Assembly: GCF_053078305.1 (NCBI RefSeq)
Contig: NZ_CP166879.1
Length of the DNA stretch: 64,000 bases
Reading direction: 5' to 3' (one strand)
A program made the translations under genes and the position numbers. Shown one piece after another: positions 7,705-26,037 of this stretch (the first letter of the stretch is position 1; every line of letters begins with the position of its first letter). The notes under the pieces are model-generated. The model did no database searches. It was not told the DNA's origin and was given only the letters and a program-made list of their open reading frames with translations.

Positions 7705-7717
7705 TTACTGCGACAAA

Positions 7718-7759
7718 TTACTGCGAGCTTGCTCGCAGTAATTCATTTCTCTTTTCTCC
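7718..7759 (+). terminator. Rho-independent terminator-like hairpin after gntU
   Basis: Arms ttactgcgagc / gctcgcagtaa around a tt centre, followed by the U-rich ttcatttctcttttctcc. Confidence 0.55.
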
Positions 7760-7843
7760 TCTCTTCATCTTTTTGATCTCTCTCGCAAATTTACCTGCAA
7801 ATAATCCGTTCTAATCACTGCCTAAAGATCGCAGGAGATAAAG

Positions 7844-9940
7844 ATGGAAAAGCACGCAGCTGAATTGCTTTTACAGCGGATGTTAGGAAATACCACCGCT
7901 ACTTTCAGGGAAGGGCAATGGGAAGCCATAGACGCGGTGGTGAACCAACGGCGAAAACTGCTGGTTGTCCAACGCACTGGCTGGGGGAAAAGTGCTGTGT
8001 ACTTCATCGCCAGTAAAATCTTCCGCGATCGCGGCGCTGGCCCGACAATTATCATCTCTCCTTTGCTTGCCCAGATGCGTAACCAGGTTGCCGCCGCTGA
8101 ACGGTTAGGTATTACGGCTGAAACGTTGAATTCTACAAACAGGGAAGAATGGCAGCGCATTAGCGATAAGTTGCTGCAAGGTGCGGTCGATTGCTTGCTG
8201 GTTTCCCCGGAACGTTTGGCAAACCAGGACTTTATCGAAACGGTTTTATATCCTATAGCCGATCGTATTGGCTTGCTTGTGGTCGACGAGGCGCACTGCA
8301 TCTCTGATTGGGGCCACGATTTTCGCCCGGATTACCGACGTATATTAGATATTTTGCGCCAACTACCTGCGAATACCCCTGTTCTGGGTACAACCGCGAC
8401 AGCGAATAACCGTGTCGTTGAGGATATCCGTCAGCAATTGGGTGACATTGTGATTCAGCGTGGAACGCTGGCTCGCGAAAGTTTGGCGCTTGATGCCTTA
8501 GTCTTAGGTGAACAGTCATCCCGTCTGGCATGGTTAGCAACGGTTATCCCTCAGTTTTCCAAATCGGGAATTGTTTATACCCTGACTACTCGCGATGCCG
8601 AACTTGTCGCCGAGTGGTTAAGGAAAAATGGTATCAGTGCATTTGCTTACTACAGCGGCGTGACTTGTGAAGGCGCGGAAGATTCTAATACTGCCAGGGA
8701 ATATCTGGAGCAGGCGTTGCTGGCAAATAAAATTAAAGTGCTGGTTGCGACAACGGCGCTGGGAATGGGCTTTGACAAACCGGATTTGGGGTTTGTTATT
8801 CATTACCAGATGCCAGGTTCGATAGTTGGTTACTACCAACAGGTGGGGCGTGCCGGTCGCGGTATCGATTCTGCTGTTGGCATACTGCTTTGCGGCAGTG
8901 AAGACCGTGCTATTCATAAATTCTTCCGTGAAAGCGCCTTTCCTGCGGAGGCGCAAATTCATGAATTACTCAACGTACTTAGCGTGAATGACGGTCTTAC
9001 CTTACGAGGCATTGAACAACGGACGAATCTCCGTTATGGGCAAATAGAAAAAGCACTGAAATTATTGGTAGCTGAAAATCCATCGCCTGTGGTGTATACC
9101 GAGAAATTATGGCGCAGAACAATTGTCAGTTTTTCTCCTGACCATGAACGAATTAACCATTTGATGAATCAGAGAAAAAGTGAGCTGGCAGACGTTGAAA
9201 GCTATATCACGACCAAGGAGTGCAAAATGCAATTTCTGCGCCGCGCACTCGATGAGCCAGGTGCCGAACATTGTGGTAAATGTAGCAGTTGTCTTCAGCA
9301 TCCGTTGTTGTCGCCCGACATTGATAGCGGCTTACTCCATGCGGCAAACTTATTTATTAAACACGCTGACCTGTCATTAAATCTCAATAAACAGGTGGCA
9401 GCTGGGGCTTTTACGCAATACGGATTTAAAGGGAACTTGCCTGCGATTTTACAAGGATCTACGGGGCGAATCCTTTCTCGTTGGGGAGATTCCGGGTGGG
9501 GAAAGCAGGTAGCACAGGAGAAAAAAACGGGGCGATTCAGTGATGAACTGGTGGAGGCATGTGCGGAAATGGTTCGCCAACGCTGGAATCCGCATCCTGA
9601 ACCAACCTGGGTATGCTGCGTTCCTTCATTACAGCACCTCGACCTGGTTCCTGATTTTGCCCGGCGACTGGCGGCGAAACTTGGCTTACCTTTTATTGAT
9701 GCCATTGAAAAAGTCGTGGACAATCCACCGCAGAAAATGCAGCAAAACCGTTTCCACCAGTGTCAAAATCTCGACGGGGCGTTTGTGATTACCCCTCCTT
9801 TGATGCCTGGTCCGGCGTTGCTGGTTGACGATATCGTGGATTCTGCATGGACGCTGACAGTTCTGACAGCACTGTTACGCCAGGCAGGTTGCCCGACGGT
9901 TTATCCTCTTGCCCTTGCTTCTACCTCGGTAAAAAATTGA
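7844..9940 (+). CDS. RecQ-family superfamily-2 DNA helicase with Zn-binding module, fused to a C-terminal ComF/GntX-like phosphoribosyltransferase-fold domain (apparently degenerate)
   Basis: 698 aa. Walker A QRTGWGKS; RecQ-type motif II VVDEAHCISDWGHDFRPDY; later helicase motifs TATA and QQVGRAGRG; four-Cys cluster CKMQ...HCGKCSSC. The last ~150 aa parallel the GntX C-terminus (NLDGAFVI...ALLVDDIVDSAWTLTVLTALLRQAGCPTV vs GntX NLKNAFRL...MVIVDDVVTTGSTVAEIAQLLLRNGAATV). Good SD (gcaggag) 8 nt upstream. I do not recall this gene in K-12. Confidence 0.8.
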   Translation: MEKHAAELLLQRMLGNTTATFREGQWEAIDAVVNQRRKLLVVQRTGWGKSAVYFIASKIFRDRGAGPTIIISPLLAQMRNQVAAAERLGITAETLNSTNREEWQRISDKLLQGAVDCLLVSPERLANQDFIETVLYPIADRIGLLVVDEAHCISDWGHDFRPDYRRILDILRQLPANTPVLGTTATANNRVVEDIRQQLGDIVIQRGTLARESLALDALVLGEQSSRLAWLATVIPQFSKSGIVYTLTTRDAELVAEWLRKNGISAFAYYSGVTCEGAEDSNTAREYLEQALLANKIKVLVATTALGMGFDKPDLGFVIHYQMPGSIVGYYQQVGRAGRGIDSAVGILLCGSEDRAIHKFFRESAFPAEAQIHELLNVLSVNDGLTLRGIEQRTNLRYGQIEKALKLLVAENPSPVVYTEKLWRRTIVSFSPDHERINHLMNQRKSELADVESYITTKECKMQFLRRALDEPGAEHCGKCSSCLQHPLLSPDIDSGLLHAANLFIKHADLSLNLNKQVAAGAFTQYGFKGNLPAILQGSTGRILSRWGDSGWGKQVAQEKKTGRFSDELVEACAEMVRQRWNPHPEPTWVCCVPSLQHLDLVPDFARRLAAKLGLPFIDAIEKVVDNPPQKMQQNRFHQCQNLDGAFVITPPLMPGPALLVDDIVDSAWTLTVLTALLRQAGCPTVYPLALASTSVKN

Positions 9941-11142
9941 TGAATCTTTCAGCCAATGCACAAGCAACTCTCCTGCTAACCAGCGATTTTTCTCGCGCGG
10001 CGGCGAGTGAGTATAAACCTCTTAGTAATAGTGAATGGGGGAAGTTTGCATTATGGCTGAAGCACCAACGTATCAGTCCCGCCGAGCTTCTGGTGCCGCA
10101 ACCGCAAGAGAAACTTACAGGCTGGAGCGATCCGCGTATTTCTCAGGAGCGTATTCTTGGCTTGCTGGCGCGTGGTCATAGTCTGGCGTTGGCGGTAGAT
10201 AAGTGGCAACGCGCCGGTTTATGGATCTTAACCCGCGGAGATGCTGATTATCCCGTTCGCTTGAAAAACCGATTGCGAACGGATGCACCTCCCGTTTTAT
10301 TTGGCTGCGGGAATAAAGCATTACTGCAAGCGGAAGGTATGGCGATTGTTGGCTCGCGAGATGCTCCGACTGACGATTTGCGCTATACCCAACAACTGGC
10401 CGCGAAACTGGCCCAACAGGGGATTTGCGTTATCTCTGGTGGTGCGCGAGGTATTGATGAATGTGCAATGGCGTCGGTACTGGAGGCCGGGGGAACTGCC
10501 GTTGGCGTATTAGCTGATAGCTTGTTAAAAACGAGTACGTTAGTGAAATGGCGTGAAGGGCTTATAGCAGGCAACCTGGTGTTGATTTCGCCGTTTTACC
10601 CAGAGGTACGTTTCACCGTCGGCAATGCGATGGCGCGAAATAAATATATTTATTGCCTTGCTGAAAGCGCAATGGTTGTACGTGCGGGAATGACCGGTGG
10701 AACGATAACCGGGGCGATGGAGGCATTAAAACATCAGTGGCTGCCTGTGCAGGTTAAACCAAATCAGGATATGCAATCAGCCAATTCACGATTAGTAGAA
10801 AATGGGGCGTCATGGAGTGCTGAACAGGCTGAGAATGTGACGATCAGACTGCCAGACGTTCCTGGGCTGATGTATGACAGAGCACTCCGTAACGCTCAAC
10901 CAGAACTGTTTTCGCTGCATGAAGATGACGCAAATTACGCAGTAATGCCCGCGTATACGCCTGTCGATTTTTATCAACTCTTTGTGGCGGAACTGGCGAT
11001 CCTTGCAAAGGAATCGATAAGTATTGAAAGGCTGGCGTCTTGTACTGGTTTAACCATCGAACAAATTAGTGTGTGGCTGAACCGCGCAGAAGAAGAGGGA
11101 AGGGTTATCCGATTGGGCGAAGGTCATTATCAGTTCAGGTAA
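9940..11142 (+). CDS. DprA/Smf-like (SLOG-superfamily Rossmann) DNA-processing protein with N- and C-terminal extensions
   Basis: Start taken at the ATG overlapping the helicase stop by 1 nt (ttgATGaat), not the upstream in-frame ATG of the ORF track. DprA core motifs MAIVGSRDAPTD, ISGGARGIDECAMASVLEAGG, ISPFYPEVRF, ARNKYIYCLAESAMVV. About 90-aa C-terminal tail, possibly a winged helix. Confidence 0.8.
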   Translation: MNLSANAQATLLLTSDFSRAAASEYKPLSNSEWGKFALWLKHQRISPAELLVPQPQEKLTGWSDPRISQERILGLLARGHSLALAVDKWQRAGLWILTRGDADYPVRLKNRLRTDAPPVLFGCGNKALLQAEGMAIVGSRDAPTDDLRYTQQLAAKLAQQGICVISGGARGIDECAMASVLEAGGTAVGVLADSLLKTSTLVKWREGLIAGNLVLISPFYPEVRFTVGNAMARNKYIYCLAESAMVVRAGMTGGTITGAMEALKHQWLPVQVKPNQDMQSANSRLVENGASWSAEQAENVTIRLPDVPGLMYDRALRNAQPELFSLHEDDANYAVMPAYTPVDFYQLFVAELAILAKESISIERLASCTGLTIEQISVWLNRAEEEGRVIRLGEGHYQFR

Positions 11143-11145
11143 TAA

Positions 11146-11181
11146 AACAGGTGCCGCGTCTGGTTGTGTGCAGCACCTGTT
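11146..11181. terminator. Imperfect inverted repeat (acaggtgc...gcacctgt) between the convergent DprA-like gene and yhgN
   Basis: Complementary arms about 8 bp each, seen in the sequence; no strong U-tract. Confidence 0.35.
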
Positions 11182-11187
11182 TGAACC

Positions 11188-13348: not shown

Positions 13349-15535
13349 ATGTCCGATCGTATCGATAGAGACGTGATTAACGCGCTAATTGCAGGCCATT
13401 TTGCGGATCCTTTTTCCGTACTGGGAATGCATAAAACCACCGCGGGACTGGAAGTCCGTGCCCTTTTACCCGACGCTACCGATGTCTGGGTGATTGAACC
13501 GAAAACCGGGCGCAAACTCGCAAAACTGGAGTGTCTCGACTCACGGGGATTCTTTAGCGGCATCATTCCGCGACGTAAGAATTTTTTCCGCTATCAGTTG
13601 GCTGTTGTCTGGCATGGTCAGCAAAACCTGATTGATGATCCTTACCGTTTTGGTCCGCTAATCCAGGAAATGGATGCCTGGCTATTATCTGAAGGTACTC
13701 ACCTGCGTCCGTATGAAACCTTAGGCGCGCATGCAGATACTATGGATGGCGTCACAGGTACGCGTTTTTCTGTCTGGGCTCCAAACGCCCGTCGGGTCTC
13801 GGTGGTTGGGCAATTCAACTACTGGGACGGTCGCCGTCACCCGATGCGCCTGCGTAAAGAGAGCGGCATCTGGGAACTGTTTATCCCTGGGGCGCATAAC
13901 GGTCAGCTCTATAAATACGAGATGATTGATGCCAATGGCAACTTGCGTCTGAAGTCCGACCCTTATGCCTTCGAAGCGCAAATGCGCCCGGAAACCGCGT
14001 CTCTTATTTGCGGGCTGCCGGAAAAGGTTGTACAGACTGAAGAGCGCAAAAAAGCGAATCAGTTTGATGCGCCAATCTCTATTTATGAAGTTCACCTGGG
14101 CTCCTGGCGTCGCCACACCGACAACAATTTCTGGTTGAGCTACCGCGAGCTGGCCGATCAACTGGTGCCTTATGCTAAATGGATGGGCTTTACCCACCTC
14201 GAACTACTGCCCATTAACGAGCATCCCTTCGATGGCAGTTGGGGTTATCAGCCAACCGGCCTGTATGCACCAACCCGCCGTTTTGGTACTCGCGACGACT
14301 TCCGTTATTTCATTGATGCTGCACACGCAGCTGGTCTGAACGTGATTCTCGACTGGGTGCCAGGCCACTTCCCGACTGATGACTTTGCGCTTGCCGAATT
14401 TGATGGTACGAACTTGTATGAACACAGCGATCCGCGCGAAGGCTATCATCAGGACTGGAACACGCTGATTTACAACTATGGTCGCCGTGAAGTCAGTAAC
14501 TTCCTCGTCGGTAACGCGCTTTACTGGATTGAACGTTTTGGTATTGATGCGCTGCGCGTCGATGCGGTGGCGTCGATGATTTATCGTGACTACAGCCGTA
14601 AAGAGGGGGAGTGGATCCCGAACGAATTTGGCGGGCGCGAGAATCTTGAAGCGATTGAATTCTTGCGTAATACCAACCGTATTCTTGGTGAGCAGGTTTC
14701 CGGTGCGGTGACAATGGCTGAGGAGTCTACCGATTTCCCTGGCGTTTCTCGTCCGCAGGATATGGGCGGTCTGGGCTTCTGGTACAAGTGGAACCTCGGC
14801 TGGATGCATGACACCCTGGACTACATGAAGCTCGACCCGATTTATCGTCAGTATCATCACGATAAACTGACCTTCGGGATGCTCTACAACTACACTGAAA
14901 ACTTCGTCCTGCCGTTGTCGCATGATGAAGTGGTCCACGGTAAAAAATCGATTCTCGACCGCATGCCGGGCGACGCATGGCAGAAATTCGCTAACCTGCG
15001 CGCTTACTATGGCTGGATGTGGGCATTTCCGGGCAAGAAACTGCTGTTCATGGGGAACGAATTTGCCCAGGGCCGCGAGTGGAACCATGACGCCAGCCTC
15101 GACTGGCATCTGTTGGAAGGCGGCGATAACTGGCACCACGGTGTCCAGCGTCTGGTGCGCGATCTGAACCTCACCTACCGCCACCATAAAGCGATGCATG
15201 AACTGGATTTTGACCCGTACGGCTTTGAATGGCTGGTGGTGGATGACAAAGAACGCTCGGTGCTGATCTTTGTGCGTCGCGATAAAGAGGGTAACGAAAT
15301 CATCGTTGCCAGTAACTTTACGCCGGTGCCGCGTCATGATTATCGCTTCGGCATTAATCAGCCAGGCAAATGGCGTGAGATCCTCAATACCGATTCCATG
15401 CACTATCACGGCAGTAATGCAGGCAATGGCGGCACGGTACACAGCGATGAGATTGCCAGCCATGGTCGTCAGCATTCACTAAGCCTGACGCTACCACCGC
15501 TGGCCACTATCTGGCTGGTTCGGGAGGCAGAATGA
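13349..15535 (+). CDS. glgB: 1,4-alpha-glucan branching enzyme
   Basis: 728-aa GH13 enzyme; first gene of the glgBX-glgCAP cluster. Confidence 0.95.
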
Positions 15536-17505
15536 CACAACTCGCCATTGGCAAACCCGCTCCCCTCGGCGCGCATTACGACGGTCAGGGCGTCAACTTC
15601 ACACTTTTCTCCGCTCATGCCGAGCGGGTAGAGCTGTGTGTCTTTGACGCCAATGGCCAGGAACATCGCTATGACTTGCCAGGGCACAGTGGCGACATTT
15701 GGCACGGTTATCTGCCGGATGCGCGCCCGGGTTTGCGTTATGGTTATCGCGTTCATGGCCCCTGGCAACCCGCCGAGGGGCATCGCTTTAACCCGGCGAA
15801 GTTGTTGATTGATCCTTGCGCGCGGCAAATTGACGGGGAGTTTAAAGATAACCCGCTGCTGCACGCCGGTCATAATGAACCTGACTATCGCGACAACGCC
15901 GCCATTGCGCCGAAATGCGTAGTGGTGGTTGATCACTATGACTGGGAAGATGATGCCCCGCCGTGCACGCCGTGGGGCAGCACCATCATTTATGAAGCCC
16001 ATGTCAAAGGATTAACATACCTGCACCCGGAGATCCCGGTCGAGATCCGTGGCACTTATAAAGCCCTCGGGCATCCGGTGATGATCAACTATTTGAAACA
16101 GTTGGGCATTACCGCGCTGGAACTGCTGCCGGTGGCGCAGTTTGCCAGTGAACCACGTCTGCAACGCATGGGGCTAAGTAACTACTGGGGGTACAACCCG
16201 GTGGCGATGTTTGCGCTGCATCCGGCGTATGCCTGCTCGCCAGAAACGGCGCTGCATGAGTTTCGCGATGCAATCAAAGCACTGCATAAAGCGGGTATCG
16301 AAGTCATTCTTGATATCGTGCTCAACCATAGTGCGGAACTGGACCTCGACGGCCCGTTATTCTCGCTGCGTGGGATCGACAACCGTAGCTATTATTGGAT
16401 AAGAGAAGACGGCGATTATCACAACTGGACCGGTTGTGGCAACACGCTCAATTTGAGTCACCCGGCGGTGGTGGATTATGCCAGCGCCTGCCTGCGTTAT
16501 TGGGTAGAAACCTGCCACGTCGATGGTTTCCGCTTTGATCTGGCGGCAGTCATGGGTCGTACGCCAGAGTTCCGTCAGGATGCGCCGTTGTTTACCGCTA
16601 TCCAGAACTGCCCGGTGCTCTCGCAGGTGAAGTTAATTGCTGAACCGTGGGATATCGCTCCTGGTGGTTATCAGGTGGGAAATTTCCCGCCGCTGTTTGC
16701 CGAGTGGAACGATCATTTCCGCGATGCTGCCCGTCGTTTCTGGCTACATTATGATTTGCCTCTGGGGGCGTTTGCCGGGCGTTTTGCTGCCTCCAGCGAT
16801 GTTTTTAAACGTAATGGTCGTCTGCCGAGTGCCGCGATTAATCTCGTCACCGCACATGACGGTTTTACGCTTCGCGACTGCGTTTGCTTCAACCATAAAC
16901 ACAATGAAGCAAACGGAGAAGAAAATCGCGACGGGACCAACAACAATTACAGTAACAATCATGGTAAAGAAGGGTTAGGCGGTACTCTTGATCTGGTTGA
17001 ACGGCGGCGCGACAGCATTCATGCCCTGTTAACAACGTTGTTGCTCTCCCAGGGCACGCCGATGTTACTGGCCGGTGACGAACATGGTCACAGCCAGCAT
17101 GGCAATAACAATGCCTACTGTCAGGATAACCAATTAACCTGGTTGGACTGGTCGCAGGCAAGCAGTGGTTTAACCGCATTTACCGCCGCGTTAATCCATC
17201 TGCGCAAGCGTATTCCCGCTTTGGTGGAGAATCGCTGGTGGGAAGAAGGCGACGGCAATGTCCGTTGGCTAAATCGATATGCTCAACCTTTAAGCACGGA
17301 TGAGTGGCAAAACGGGCCGAAACAGCTGCAAATTCTGCTCTCGGATCGCTTTTTGATCGCAATTAACGCCACGCTTGAGGTAACAGAGATTGTTTTACCT
17401 GCAGGGGAGTGGCACGCCATTCCCCCATTCGCTGGAGAGGATAACCCAGTGATTACGGCTGTCTGGCAGGGACCTGCACACGGATTGTGTGTGTTCCAGA
17501 GATGA
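15532..17505 (+). CDS. glgX: Glycogen debranching enzyme
   Basis: 657-aa GH13 ORF; overlaps the glgB stop by 4 nt. Confidence 0.95.
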
Positions 17506-17520
17506 TAAAAAAGGAGTTAG
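17476..17520 (+). promoter_or_regulatory. glgC leader with CsrA binding sites (GGA in the cacacGGAuugugug hairpin loop and at the Shine-Dalgarno AAGGAG)
   Basis: Hairpin and GGA motifs seen in the sequence; CsrA repression of glgCAP is established knowledge. Confidence 0.7.
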
Positions 17521-17522
17521 TC

Positions 17523-18818
17523 ATGGTTAGTTTAGAGAAGAACGATCACTTAATGTTGGCGCGCCAGCTGCCATTGAAATCTGTTGCCCTGATACTGGCG
17601 GGAGGACGTGGTACCCGCCTGAAGGATTTAACCAATAAGCGAGCAAAACCGGCCGTACACTTCGGCGGTAAGTTCCGCATTATCGACTTTGCGCTGTCTA
17701 ACTGCATCAACTCCGGGATCCGTCGTATGGGCGTGATCACCCAGTACCAGTCCCACACTCTGGTGCAGCACATTCAGCGCGGCTGGTCATTCTTCAATGA
17801 AGAAATGAACGAGTTTGTCGATCTGCTGCCAGCACAGCAGAGAATGAAAGGGGAAAACTGGTATCGCGGCACCGCAGATGCGGTCACCCAAAACCTCGAC
17901 ATTATCCGCCGTTATAAAGCGGAATACGTGGTGATCCTGGCGGGCGACCATATCTACAAGCAAGACTACTCGCGTATGCTTATCGACCACGTCGAAAAAG
18001 GCGCACGTTGCACCGTTGCTTGTATGCCAGTACCGATTGAAGAAGCCTCCGCATTTGGCGTTATGGCGGTTGATGAGAACGATAAAATTATCGAATTCGT
18101 TGAAAAACCTGCTAACCCGCCGTCAATGCCGAACGATCCGAGCAAATCTCTGGCGAGTATGGGTATCTACGTCTTTGACGCCGACTATCTGTATGAACTG
18201 CTGGAAGAAGACGATCGCGATGAGAACTCCAGCCACGACTTTGGCAAAGATTTGATTCCCAAGATCACCGAAGCCGGTCTGGCCTATGCGCACCCGTTCC
18301 CGCTCTCTTGCGTACAATCCGACCCGGATGCCGAGCCGTACTGGCGCGATGTGGGTACGCTGGAAGCTTACTGGAAAGCGAACCTCGATCTGGCCTCTGT
18401 GGTGCCGGAGCTGGATATGTACGATCGCAATTGGCCAATTCGCACCTACAATGAATCATTACCGCCAGCGAAATTCGTGCAGGATCGCTCCGGTAGCCAC
18501 GGGATGACCCTTAACTCACTGGTTTCCGGCGGTTGTGTGATCTCCGGTTCGGTGGTGGTGCAGTCCGTTCTGTTCTCGCGCGTTCGCGTGAATTCATTCT
18601 GCAACATTGATTCCGCCGTATTGTTACCGGAAGTATGGGTAGGTCGCTCGTGCCGTCTGCGCCGCTGCGTCATCGATCGTGCTTGTGTTATTCCGGAAGG
18701 CATGGTGATTGGTGAAAACGCAGAGGAAGATGCACGTCGTTTCTATCGTTCAGAAGAAGGCATCGTGCTGGTAACGCGCGAAATGCTACGGAAGTTAGGG
18801 CATAAACAGGAGCGATAA
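17523..18818 (+). CDS. glgC: Glucose-1-phosphate adenylyltransferase
   Basis: Start placed at [33 protein letters not shown] (431 aa), not the upstream in-frame ATG. Confidence 0.95.
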
Positions 18819-20251
18819 TGCAGGTTTTACATGTATGTTCAGAGATGTTCCCGCTGCTTAAAACCGGCGGTCTGGCTGATGTTATTGGGGCATTACCCGC
18901 AGCACAAATCGCAGACGGCGTTGACGCTCGCGTACTGTTGCCTGCATTTCCCGATATTCGCCGTGGCGTGACCGATGCGCAGGTAGTATCCCGTCGTGAT
19001 ACCTTCGCCGGGCATATCACGCTGTTGTTCGGTCATTACAACGGGGTTGGCATATACCTGATTGACGCGCCGCATCTCTATGATCGTCCGGGAAGCCCGT
19101 ATCACGATACCAACTTATTTGCCTATACCGACAACGTATTGCGTTTTGCGCTACTGGGGTGGGTTGGGGCAGAAATGGCCAGCGGGCTTGACCCATTCTG
19201 GCGTCCTGATGTGGTGCATGCGCACGACTGGCATGCAGGCCTTGCGCCTGCGTATCTGGCGGCGCGCGGGCGTCCGGCGAAGTCGGTGTTTACTGTGCAC
19301 AACCTGGCCTATCAAGGCATGTTTTATGCACATCACATGAATGACATCCAATTGCCATGGTCATTCTTTAATATTCATGGGCTGGAATTCAACGGACAAA
19401 TCTCTTTCCTGAAGGCCGGTCTGTACTATGCCGATCACATTACGGCGGTCAGTCCAACCTACGCTCGCGAGATCACCGAACCGCAGTTTGCCTACGGTAT
19501 GGAAGGTCTGTTGCAACAGCGTCACCGTGAAGGGCGTCTTTCCGGCGTACTGAACGGCGTGGACGAGAAAATCTGGAGTCCAGAGACGGACTTACTGTTG
19601 GCCTCGCGTTACACCCGCGATACGTTGGAAGATAAAGCGGAAAATAAGCGCCAGTTACAAATCGCAATGGGGCTTAAGGTTGACGATAAAGTGCCGCTTT
19701 TTGCAGTGGTGAGCCGTCTGACCAGCCAGAAAGGTCTCGACCTGGTGCTGGAAGCCTTACCGGGCCTTCTGGAGCAGGGCGGGCAGCTGGCGCTACTCGG
19801 CGCGGGCGATCCGGTGCTGCAGGAAGGTTTCCTTGCGGCGGCAGCGGAATACCCCGGCCAGGTGGGCGTTCAGATTGGCTATCACGAAGCATTTTCGCAT
19901 CGCATTATGGGCGGCGCGGACGTCATTCTGGTGCCCAGCCGTTTTGAACCGTGCGGCTTAACGCAACTTTATGGATTGAAGTACGGTACGCTGCCGTTAG
20001 TGCGGCGCACCGGTGGGCTTGCTGATACGGTTTCTGACTGTTCTCTTGAGAACCTTGCAGATGGCGTCGCCAGTGGGTTTGTCTTTGAAGATAGTAATGC
20101 CTGGTCGCTATTACGGGCTATTCGACGTGCTTTTGTACTGTGGTCCCGTCCTTCACTGTGGCGGTTTGTGCAACGTCAGGCTATGGCAATGGATTTTAGC
20201 TGGCAGGTCGCGGCGAAGTCGTACCGTGAGCTTTACTATCGCTTGAAATAG
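18818..20251 (+). CDS. glgA: Glycogen synthase
   Basis: 477 aa; N-terminal [14 protein letters not shown] motif; start overlaps the glgC stop. Confidence 0.95.
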
Positions 20252-22833: not shown

Positions 22834-24351
22834 ATGGACAGAATGATGCCAAATAGAAAATGGATTTTGACCTCGCTGATAATGACTTTTTTCGGCATCC
22901 CCATACTGGCGCAATTTTTGGCAGCGGTTGTTGCCATGCTGGGTGTCGGGCTTACCGGTATTATTGAAGTTTGTAATATCCTTATCACGCCAACAATTTA
23001 TCTTCTACTCAACGTCTTTATGCTGACGCTGGGGGCGATAATAATATTTTTCTCTGGTCGCGTGTGGGCCGGTGATAGCGCGCCAGAAAACAGAGAAATA
23101 GCCGTCTGGCGGCAATGCTTTTTTCTCTTACCCGCGCTATTAACCCTGGTTGGCTGGATAATCACGCTACATCTGGCAGATTATCAATTTCGCCAGATGG
23201 GAGCTGGTTGGTTGGCAAACCTTATGCTTCCCTGGTTGGGCGTTTTTTTAGTCTCATTAGTGGGTGGTGAGTACTGGTGGATGGTCATTATTCCCGTTGG
23301 GGTGCATATCAGTTTTTCGCTGGGATACGCCTGGCCGACCAGATATCCTTTATCCGGCACGTCCGGACTACGTTGCCGTAACTTACTCCTGTTTCTACTT
23401 CTCTTACTTGGTATTGTCGCCGGGTATCAGGCCCATTTATATAAGCAGCAAAATCCTGGTGTCGGTGTACGCGAAAATATTGATATCTGGGCCTGGCGAC
23501 CCGATAAACTCAATAATCGACTGACGCCGCTGCGTGGCAAACCGCAAATTCAGTTTAGGCAAAACTGGCCGCGAATCGATGGCGCCACGGCTGCGTACCC
23601 AATTTATGCTTCTGCATTTTATGCATTAAGTGTAATACCAGAGGATTTTCACGTTTGGGATTATCTGGAAAACTCTCGTACGCCAGAAGCATATAACAAA
23701 ATCGTTAAGGGCGATGCTGATATTATTTTCGTGGCGCAACCTTCCGGTGGGCAAAAAAAACGTGCAAAGGAATCTGGTGTCACTTTGCTGTACACCCCCT
23801 TTGCCCGTGAAGCATTCGTTTTCATCGTCAATGCGGATAATCCGGTTAATTCCCTGACTGAACAACAGGTGCGTGACATTTTCAGTGGTGCAATTACCAA
23901 CTGGCGTACTTTTGGCGGTAACGATCAGGAGATCCAGACCTGGCAGCGCCCGGAAGACTCTGGCAGCCAGACAGTGATGCAATCACAGGTCATGAAAAAT
24001 GTCCGCATGATCTCGCCGCAGGAAACGGAAGTGGCAAGCGTGATGGAGGGAATGATTAAAGTCGTTGCCGAATACCGTAATACAAACAACGCAATAGGCT
24101 ATACCTTCCGCTATTACGCGACGCAAATGAATGCTGATAAAAATATAAAATTGCTAGCGATTAACGGTATTACACCGACGGCGGAAAACATTCGCAACGG
24201 CAAATATGCGTACATCGTCGATGCATTTATGGTGACGAGAGAAAATAAAACGTCAGAAACACAAAAACTGGTCGAATGGTTTTTAACGCCGCAGGGGCAG
24301 AGTCTGGTAGAAGATGTGGGATATGTGCCGCTGTATAAAATCTTACCTTAA
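22834..24351 (+). CDS. Membrane-anchored protein: N-terminal polytopic domain (~6 predicted TM helices) plus C-terminal periplasmic solute-binding-protein-like domain (PBP superfamily, possibly phosphate/oxyanion type)
   Basis: 505-aa ORF. First ~200 aa hydrophobic; C-terminal part has SBP-like segments (DGATAAYPIYASAFY, FVAQPSGGQ, LLAINGITPTAENIRNGKYAY). K-12 carries only a pseudogene (yzgL) at this position as far as I recall. SBP subfamily is a guess. Confidence 0.6.
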   Translation: MDRMMPNRKWILTSLIMTFFGIPILAQFLAAVVAMLGVGLTGIIEVCNILITPTIYLLLNVFMLTLGAIIIFFSGRVWAGDSAPENREIAVWRQCFFLLPALLTLVGWIITLHLADYQFRQMGAGWLANLMLPWLGVFLVSLVGGEYWWMVIIPVGVHISFSLGYAWPTRYPLSGTSGLRCRNLLLFLLLLLGIVAGYQAHLYKQQNPGVGVRENIDIWAWRPDKLNNRLTPLRGKPQIQFRQNWPRIDGATAAYPIYASAFYALSVIPEDFHVWDYLENSRTPEAYNKIVKGDADIIFVAQPSGGQKKRAKESGVTLLYTPFAREAFVFIVNADNPVNSLTEQQVRDIFSGAITNWRTFGGNDQEIQTWQRPEDSGSQTVMQSQVMKNVRMISPQETEVASVMEGMIKVVAEYRNTNNAIGYTFRYYATQMNADKNIKLLAINGITPTAENIRNGKYAYIVDAFMVTRENKTSETQKLVEWFLTPQGQSLVEDVGYVPLYKILP

Positions 24352-24453
24352 GCAGGATAATCATATGGATACCGGTATTATTCGCCTGAACGCGGCCAAT
24401 GCTCGTTTTGTTTATCAACCGTTTACACGCAATCAGCGGAAGAGGGAGTAATT

Positions 24454-25230
24454 ATGCAATGCAGCCCCGCCATGCAGGCATTAATTGAGCAGATTTATCA
24501 TATTTTTCGTCGTTATCCGGTGCCGTCGAGATTTCATGTTTGTTGTCCTTACTGCTTTAGCGAAGAACAACAACAAGCCTTAAGAGGGGTTTCACTGCGT
24601 GCCATACCTTTCCCTTTATTACATGCCTGGGGAACAAGTATTGGTCCTACCCCGCAAAATGATGATGAGATTCGCTATTTATTACCCAGATTGTTTGAAT
24701 TTATTTCCCAAAGGCAATTTCCAGGCATTTATGAAGGCTGCTGTTTACAGAGAATAGCAGAGGCAGATAACCAGAACTGGCGAACGGACGAACTACAAAT
24801 AATTAGCGATTTCGCCTATTTATATATGCAGGATTGGGTGTCGGCTAAGGAGGTCGTAGAACTGGAAATAATATTAGAAATGTTTTATCGCGGTGGTATA
24901 AAGATTGAACCCTTACTTGACGCCATTATGTCCATTTCCGGTTACTGGCCGACGGCGTCTATGGCATGTTTGCTCTGGCGTAACAGTAAAGAATACGTCG
25001 AAAATAGCGATTTTGAGCAGAGTGATGATAATAAAACTATTACCACTCAAATTAATACCTGGGCTAGAAATAATCATCCTTTTCTGAAAGAAAGAGCGCG
25101 ACAAGCGATTGAGAACCCACTAAAACAGCCTGAACCAATGACAGAATATCAAGTCTGGGAAGACGACTGGATGATTGATGAGTGTTTATGCGCGATGTAT
25201 GACGCATCACCCGAACAATCAGGACAATAA
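24454..25230 (+). CDS. Hypothetical soluble protein, Cys-containing N-terminus (CCPYC); no family recognised
   Basis: 258-aa ORF, AT-richer than flanking core genes; its stop is 2 nt before the next ORF's start. Confidence 0.5.
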   Translation: MQCSPAMQALIEQIYHIFRRYPVPSRFHVCCPYCFSEEQQQALRGVSLRAIPFPLLHAWGTSIGPTPQNDDEIRYLLPRLFEFISQRQFPGIYEGCCLQRIAEADNQNWRTDELQIISDFAYLYMQDWVSAKEVVELEIILEMFYRGGIKIEPLLDAIMSISGYWPTASMACLLWRNSKEYVENSDFEQSDDNKTITTQINTWARNNHPFLKERARQAIENPLKQPEPMTEYQVWEDDWMIDECLCAMYDASPEQSGQ

Positions 25231-25232
25231 AG

Positions 25233-25823
25233 ATGAATAAAATCAGACTTTATATTTATCCGCTATATCTCGGCTTTGTTATTGTGCCGTTGTTGGTGTG
25301 GCCGACGGTGGTTGTTGTTGGTATCACACTGAGTTTTCTAATGGAGATGCTGTTCTCAAATTCGTTCATGCACAGGCGTATTTCCCTTCTGGAATTACAA
25401 CTTGGGTTATTGGCTGAATATACGCTTTTGTTCTGCGCCATATGTTGCGTTGGTTGGCAATTTGCTCGCATAACTCAATCTGAATTGAAAAGCAAACTGC
25501 ATTATTGGCTGGTATTTGTACCAGTTTATTTCTGGTTGCTCCTGTGGAATATCATTTTCTATGTCGCGCCAGCGAAAATTGCATTGCTGGAAAATATGCG
25601 CAGTTTCTTTCTGACCGTTGTCTGGCTCCCACTGAATTTTTCGCCATTTTGGTCTCAACCGTGGATTGACTTTGTCGGTCCAATAAGCGCACAGCTTGGT
25701 TTTGCGTTGGGATATTATTGCCAGTGGCGTAGCAAAAATAGAAGCCAGAGGAAGAAGTGGGGCGAGTGGGTAATGTGCTTAAGTTTTGTTACGTTGGGTA
25801 TGATGGCGTGGGCTTTGCGGTAA
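25233..25823 (+). CDS. Hypothetical integral membrane protein (4-5 predicted TM helices)
   Basis: 196-aa hydrophobic ORF tightly coupled to the preceding ORF; AT-rich. Confidence 0.5.
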   Translation: MNKIRLYIYPLYLGFVIVPLLVWPTVVVVGITLSFLMEMLFSNSFMHRRISLLELQLGLLAEYTLLFCAICCVGWQFARITQSELKSKLHYWLVFVPVYFWLLLWNIIFYVAPAKIALLENMRSFFLTVVWLPLNFSPFWSQPWIDFVGPISAQLGFALGYYCQWRSKNRSQRKKWGEWVMCLSFVTLGMMAWALR

Positions 25824-25876
25824 TTCCCTGAATCAAAAAGTAGGTCAGATTGTTGACAACGTGGCGCTTTGTTCAT

Positions 25877-25975
25877 GCCTGATGCGGCGTGAACGCCTTA
25901 TCAGGCCTACAAAATCATGCAAATTCAACATATTGCATAAACCACGTAGGCCTGATAAGCGTAGCGCATCAGGCA
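25877..25975. repeat. BIME: two inverted REP sequences (gcctgatgcggcgtgaacgccttatcaggcctac ... gtaggcctgataagcgtagcgcatcaggca)
   Basis: Canonical enterobacterial REP consensus (GATGCGGCG ... GGCCTAC) read directly; intergenic, downstream of glpD. Confidence 0.85.
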
Positions 25976-26037
25976 ATTTTGTGTTTGTCATCAGTCTCAG
26001 GCCAGATTGAAATCTGACCTGATCACCTTACGTTAAT

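Follow-up and report, generated by a model that had tools for sequence, protein, structure and literature searches.

The 400-amino-acid open reading frame (ORF) at positions 9940–11142 (+ strand) of a 64,000-nucleotide (nt) stretch of Escherichia coli DNA (contig NZ_CP166879.1 of RefSeq assembly GCF_053078305.1; the whole stretch is called the window below) is, with high confidence, rqlI (psyrA), the antitoxin gene of the two-gene RqlHI / PsyrTA toxin–antitoxin and anti-phage module. By the same assignment the 698-amino-acid helicase ORF directly upstream (7844–9940, + strand) is rqlH (psyrT). The DprA-like protein was matched by the PADLOC model PDLC03927, PsyrA, with an E-value of 5.5e-202 and 669 bits, residues 1–400 aligning with positions 1–397 of the 398 in the model, and the helicase was matched by the PADLOC PsyrT model over residues 3–697 (E = 0, 1056.6 bits). 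PsyrTA and RqlHI are the same system according to the published anti-phage survey (Millman 2022). The profile matches describe the toxin RqlH as a RecQ-like superfamily 2 (SF2) helicase with a C-terminal phosphoribosyltransferase (PRTase)-like domain: it scored 248.9 bits against NCBIfam recQ_fam, over the cut-off of 219.8, and matched Pfam DEAD and Helicase_C as well as, weakly, RecQ_Zn_bind and Pribosyltran, the last over residues 605–683 with an E-value of 0.0087. The PRTase-like domain, placed at approximately residues 510–698 (9371–9937, + strand), contains LLVDDIVDSAWT; a search of Protein Data Bank (PDB) sequences with this domain returned no significant match among solved structures, the best E-value being 0.18 and adenine PRTases appearing at about 0.3. 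RqlI was further recognised by Pfam DNA_processg_A, and is 47–72% identical, over at least 96% of its length, to the listed homologues from outside E. coli.

The gene, its partner, the operon, the physical interaction and the domain layout were thus already known, having been published between 2013 and 2022, and the pair is picked up by standard defence-system finders, so that its presence here carries little weight as a discovery. The reading offered in a preliminary description, made from the letters alone, is supported as right but rediscovers a named and experimentally studied gene. Of the checks put forward there, interaction with the helicase and domain prediction have for the most part been carried out, with a positive outcome. 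The additions of the present work are the near-invariant junction between the two genes across species, doubt about the RefSeq start, the recognition of the terminal domains as an inherited DprA layout, and the association with type I restriction–modification (R-M) operons.

Co-transcription of rqlH and rqlI was previously demonstrated by reverse transcription PCR (RT-PCR) (Russell & Mulvey 2015, PMC4670107). In that study of E. coli F11, RqlI and RqlH were co-immunoprecipitated, and truncation of RqlH to residues 1–509, which removes the PRTase domain, abolished the interaction (PMC4670107); the physical complex with the helicase that the preliminary description had thought probable was therefore already on record. 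Residues 1–320 of RqlI were enough to neutralise RqlH, making the helix-turn-helix (HTH) region dispensable, while the protein was inactive once its first 84 or 129 residues had been removed (PMC4670107). SOS induction, filamentation and mutagenesis caused by RqlH alone have been reported, with the PRTase domain as the toxic part, as has a deletion of rqlI that is harmful only with rqlH present. Millman et al. count PsyrTA among the toxin–antitoxin pairs that protect against phage, and report that a psyrA deletion could not be transformed or obtained.

These interaction data bear directly on how RqlI might act. The antitoxin could in principle counter RqlH indirectly, in the manner described for ShosA, by binding single-stranded DNA (ssDNA) and RecA and so repairing or masking the damage, with no inhibitory complex being formed. 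We consider this unlikely. Complex formation depends on the PRTase domain, and the ShosA models of PADLOC matched the Rossmann core of RqlI alone (residues 85–266, E 4.2e-26, and residues 88–256, E 1e-7), far more weakly than the PsyrA model and not over the full length of the protein. Still, an indirect, ShosA-like mode and an inhibitory complex are not mutually exclusive.

Two start codons come into question for rqlI. The RefSeq annotation, produced by the Prokaryotic Genome Annotation Pipeline (PGAP), places the start at the in-frame ATG 9847 in the two E. coli records examined, giving a protein of 431 amino acids and a 94-nt overlap with rqlH, and the 431-residue form is also the representative of a 90%-identity cluster (P0001) standing for 3041 sequences. 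On this gene model the TGATG at the junction would merely encode an internal methionine with no role in coupling. Conversely, all retrieved orthologues start with MN(L/V)(S/T)...AQATLLLTS at the position of 9940, and the 31 extra residues (9847–9939) are conserved in none of them. That methionine is preceded, at a distance of one codon, by a stop codon in two orthologous loci (L005 and L011). The 400-residue form is aligned with the PADLOC PsyrA model from its first residue on, ATG 9847 is also devoid of a Shine–Dalgarno sequence (−3.1 kcal/mol), and the 2015 RqlI of E. coli F11 is itself 400 residues long, its functional construct, residues 1–400, complementing the deletion (PMC4670107). In combination, these observations support 9940 as the start, the RefSeq start being probably too long, and next to no credence is left for initiation at 9847. 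If the 431-residue form is indeed a mis-start, the error may be widespread, affecting thousands of E. coli entries.

With the start at 9940, the stop codon of rqlH (TGA, 9938–9940) and the start codon of rqlI (ATG, 9940–9942) have one base in common (AAAAAATTGATGAAT), which confirms the TGATG overlap (9938–9942, + strand) seen in the preliminary description. Such an overlap is commonplace when taken singly. Two further cases occur within 13349–20251 of the window: glgB and glgX share 4 nt (15532–15535), and 1 nt (18818) is shared by the next two ORFs, which were placed as glgC and glgA by position and not by comparison with a family library. What goes beyond chance is the conservation of the junction. 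It was measured in 58 of 80 related loci from a collection with one genome per species, to which the window itself and two more E. coli genomes were added, giving 61 in total. The spacing was −4 nt (ATGA) in 37, −1 nt in 13, +1 nt in nine and +6 nt in one, and one further locus is an outlier that looks disrupted; values of −4, −1 or +1 nt thus account for 59 of the 61 measured loci. Moreover, 79 of the 80 related loci have an RqlH-like PRTase segment that ends just 5′ of the RqlI match, the count being 81 of 82 once the two additional E. coli copies are included. It had been noted earlier that rqlH always lies 5′ of rqlI and that the rqlI start is usually near or overlapping the rqlH end (PMC4670107).

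No Shine–Dalgarno sequence was found before ATG 9940, the 20 nt upstream pairing with the anti-Shine–Dalgarno sequence at −3.1 kcal/mol compared with a window mean of −2.9, and no stable RNA structure was found at the TGATG junction (z = 0.12). Since rqlI lacks its own ribosome-binding site, the junction is conserved and the RNA there is unstructured, coupling of rqlI translation to the termination of rqlH translation is the most likely reading.

The domain anatomy of RqlI was examined in an AlphaFold model built on 51 orthologues, with a mean predicted local distance difference test (pLDDT) score of 85. In this model the N-terminal domain (residues 1–91; 9940–10212, + strand) comprises six short helices filling residues 5–91, at the place held by the SAM domain in DprA and ShosA, as the preliminary description had supposed in pointing to a SAM-like domain of canonical DprA. 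It is followed by a DprA Rossmann domain of the SLOG type (residues 92–300; 10213–10839, + strand), whose first strand is at residues 95–98 and which extends to about residue 300. Pfam DNA_processg_A (PF02481) covers residues 89–292 with an E-value of 6e-50, the SLOG family overlapping it. A variable linker (residues 301–341; 10840–10962, + strand) is predicted to be disordered, with pLDDT values of about 31–34, below 50, over residues 306–341, and its length ranges from 30 to 83 residues across orthologues. The C-terminal domain (residues 342–400; 10963–11139, + strand) is modelled over residues 344–399 as a compact helix–helix–helix–strand–strand unit, with a two-residue bridge, 360–361, after the first helix. 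The earlier estimate of about 110 residues before the Rossmann core and about 90 after it proved roughly right, the corresponding lengths being about 91 and about 100, of which about 58 are folded.

The suggestion that the C-terminal region looks like a winged HTH, made from a peptide corresponding to residues 353–399 of the 400-residue translation, is borne out by the model, in which three helices are followed by a β-hairpin and the domain superposes on solved winged helices. Sequence searches were far less telling. The isolated domain returned only non-significant homeodomain and ArsR matches against PDB sequences (best E-value 0.067), and the domain of the window protein returned nothing below an E-value of 0.013 against Pfam; a few of the orthologous domains reached E-values of 5e-5 to 6e-4 for Pfam winged-helix families. 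Pfam DprA_WH (PF17782) gave a weak E-value of 0.1 for the window protein and E ≤ 0.1 for 16 of 34 orthologues, one of them at 5e-5. Because of this weakness the fold comparison alone is informative, and a common origin of the RqlI winged helix with that of canonical DprA is, as far as such sequence likeness goes, plausible but not established. Mean identity of the orthologues to the window protein was 66% for the N-terminal domain, 59% for the Rossmann domain, 44% for the winged helix and 19% for the linker, a pattern that agrees with the published assignment of antitoxin activity to the N-terminal and Rossmann parts. The preliminary description had called the terminal domains extra. This does not hold, because the architecture most often seen in DprA is SAM–Rossmann–winged helix, the last of the DML1 / Z-alpha-like kind (PMC3950713; PMC6533540); the terminal domains of RqlI are inherited as the ordinary layout of long DprA and are not additions.

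The ssDNA signature motifs of DprA, G-S/T/A-R and F/L/Y-x-x-R-N/D (Wang et al. 2014, PMC3950713), correspond in RqlI to G138-S139-R140 and, for the second motif, to the variant A-M-A-R-N at 230–234 (10627–10641); RqlI also has SGGARGID at residues 166–173, which is likewise invariant or nearly so in the family. G138 and S139 are invariant and R140 is present in at least 90% of orthologues; A230, R233 and N234 are invariant. The A-M-x-R-N variant was reported for a "second DprA homologue", left unnamed, in bacteria such as E. coli O157:H7 Sakai (PMC3950713); this is evidently RqlI. As a separate observation, E261 is invariant in the RqlI family, and the aligned position of Helicobacter pylori DprA is a leucine.

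This full DprA architecture, together with the ssDNA motifs, could be taken to mean that RqlI is a second genuine DprA and not an antitoxin, working with the helicase–PRTase fusion in DNA uptake, recombination or repair as a fused analogue of ComFA–ComFC–DprA. The parallel with these three proteins has been noted by Iyer et al. 2017, and RqlH of Mycobacterium smegmatis is reported to be an active 3′–5′ helicase (PMC3378886). The notion nevertheless appears highly improbable. RqlI falls below the NCBIfam DprA equivalog cut-offs (TIGR00732 and PRK10736; 100.4 versus 191.15 and 77.1 versus 495 bits). The reported genotoxicity of RqlH alone and the rqlH-dependent harm of an rqlI deletion are also at odds with it, as are the location of the pair in type I R-M operons and the fact that PADLOC models this very pair as PsyrTA.

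Taking RqlI as the antitoxin of RqlH, the following course of events can be proposed. Both genes are expressed from one transcript, as shown in the literature. Ribosomes arriving from the end of rqlH would most likely go on to translate rqlI, for which no separate ribosome-binding site exists, so that the toxin would never be made without its antitoxin. The SAM-like and Rossmann domains of RqlI then clamp RqlH's PRTase domain, as the published co-immunoprecipitation and truncations show at a level short of structural detail. The pocket for ssDNA and the winged helix on its flexible tether would probably bind nucleic acid, acting either as the sensor of a trigger or as an autoregulator of the operon. 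In the sensing option, RqlI would bind phage DNA or intermediates of replication or recombination, upon which RqlH would be released. The freed RqlH might damage DNA or the nucleotide pool, leading to SOS induction, filamentation and growth arrest, and the infection would thereby be aborted. The toxicity of RqlH has been shown in the literature, whose evidence for a connection with phage defence is confined to phenotype.

The sensing option can be put more specifically, albeit tentatively. RqlI may be a phage sensor whose ssDNA pocket and Z-alpha-like winged helix bind ssDNA or unusual DNA of the phage, causing RqlI to leave the PRTase domain and unleash RqlH. The pocket and the winged helix are present in 51 of 51 aligned family members and are dispensable for the neutralisation of RqlH (for the winged helix, as reported in PMC4670107). 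Phage shut-off of host translation might also tip the balance, because with the toxin gene first and the rqlI start placed on the rqlH stop codon the antitoxin would need ongoing rqlH translation. On present evidence we regard this version as possible and somewhat doubtful.

Several points weigh against the overall picture of a translationally coupled, directly acting antitoxin with a role in defence. When native PsyrTA of E. coli NILS69 was expressed in K-12, protection against the phages tested could not be detected, and no mechanistic study of PsyrTA was found in the literature searched, which runs to mid-2026. Analogy to ShosA, the closest relative that has been characterised, is limited in that ShosA does not directly bind its own toxin. 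The coupling of rqlI translation is something that we infer, and about half of the orthologous loci have a GGTGA stretch with a moderate anti-Shine–Dalgarno match (median −6.0 kcal/mol), so that independent initiation of rqlI is possible in those loci. Finally, coupling ties antitoxin synthesis to toxin synthesis but does not guarantee a 1:1 ratio. Of the stoichiometric co-expression claimed in the preliminary description, the coupled co-expression is consequently supported by the missing Shine–Dalgarno sequence and the conserved junction, and the stoichiometry does not follow.

Of 5426 complete E. coli genomes, 1641 (about 30%) carry the pair, which lies in them between gntU and yhgN, is chromosomal every time and is annotated as "RecQ family ATP-dependent DNA helicase" and "DNA-processing protein DprA". 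The closest copies of the locus are 99.6–99.8% identical in DNA, and at the protein level the window RqlI shares at least 99% identity with each of the two other E. coli alleles examined, the allele of sequence type 131 (ST131) being 99.0% identical. Compared with the locus of E. coli MNCRE44 (L002; ST131), the helicase core of rqlH (7844–9243) shows 87.5–93% DNA identity with chiefly synonymous changes, the whole of rqlH differing in 85 synonymous and 21 non-synonymous codons; the PRTase part is 96–98.5% and rqlI 97.5–100% identical in DNA. The mosaic pattern of identity along rqlH suggests that the divergent helicase segment was brought in by recombination.

Outside E. coli, at least 15 of the 80 loci have the rqlH–rqlI pair inside a type I R-M operon, with hsdS on one side and hsdR on the other. 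The genera concerned are gammaproteobacterial and include Vibrio, Shewanella, Providencia, Kluyvera, Alteromonas and Chelonobacter, and in the two loci with ORFs listed (L016, 766–8587, and L038, 734–8572) the gaps within hsdS–rqlHI–hsdR are 12–16 nt. The HsdR proteins are 83–86% identical over most of these genera (65% in L005), which indicates that type I R-M and RqlHI together form a mobile cassette; the arrangement fits horizontal spread and a role in defence. A candidate operator-like motif upstream of rqlH, to which the winged helix might have bound, was rejected, the DNA conserved there in many genera being the 3′ end of hsdS and not a regulatory site.

In the window the pair lies in a chromosomal segment with the order gntR, gntK, gntU, helicase ORF, DprA-like ORF, yhgN (− strand), asd and glgB. 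A terminator-like hairpin with a 12-bp stem and a T-rich tail (7716–7743, + strand), detected by the terminator scan 3′ of gntU, parts this gene from rqlHI. The rqlH start is preceded by the Shine–Dalgarno sequence AGGAG (7833–7837, + strand), 6 nt 5′ of ATG 7844, with an anti-Shine–Dalgarno duplex of −7.4 kcal/mol against the window mean given above; a simple scan for a σ70 consensus promoter upstream of rqlH found none, with 3.7 expected by chance. A stable inverted repeat (AAACAGGTGC...GCACCTGTTT, 11145–11182) separates the convergent rqlI and yhgN and probably serves as a terminator in both directions; its folding energy is −18.9 kcal/mol (z −3.2) for the + strand and −21.0 kcal/mol (z −4.2) for the − strand. 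It was missed by the simple terminator scan, which is limited to loops of 3–8 nt, owing to its long loop. The E. coli rqlHI thus stands alone, having the gntU terminator on one side and the inverted repeat shared with yhgN on the other. Elsewhere in the window, a 392-amino-acid ORF (382–1560, − strand) in a stretch of 34% GC begins with a type VI secretion tube domain of the Hcp/TssD family (residues 1–147, E 6.6e-36), continues in a C-terminal extension of about 245 residues and resembles an Hcp–effector fusion. A second dip in GC content, to 43% compared with about 52% in the surroundings, spans 24001–26000.

Of the systems available for comparison, ComFA–ComFC–DprA of natural transformation contains the same three modules, an SF2 helicase, a PRTase-like domain and a DprA, as Iyer et al. 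had set out. In RqlHI, by contrast, the helicase and the PRTase are fused in one protein, the PRTase is toxic and no role in DNA uptake is known. Canonical three-domain DprA/Smf (e.g. that of Rhodopseudomonas palustris, 3MAJ, or those of Haemophilus influenzae and Neisseria meningitidis) differs from RqlI, which carries the A-M-x-R-N variant of the second ssDNA motif, has a long disordered linker before the winged helix and is linked to a toxin gene, not to competence. ShosA of ShosTA (PDB 8ZVA, 9VZO) has a short disordered tail where RqlI has a winged helix. Its toxin ShosT is a pyrophosphatase–PRTase with no helicase, whereas the partner of RqlI is a helicase–PRTase, and ShosA acts via ssDNA and RecA, whereas RqlI binds RqlH as judged by co-immunoprecipitation. 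The likeness to PsyrA of PsyrTA (Sberro 2013; Millman 2022) is full-length for both the antitoxin and its PsyrT partner. Closest of all is RqlI of E. coli F11, an extraintestinal pathogenic E. coli (ExPEC), which comes from the same species and shares with the window protein its length of 400 residues, its place immediately 3′ of a RecQ-like helicase–PRTase gene, its predicted DprA region and its predicted C-terminal HTH.

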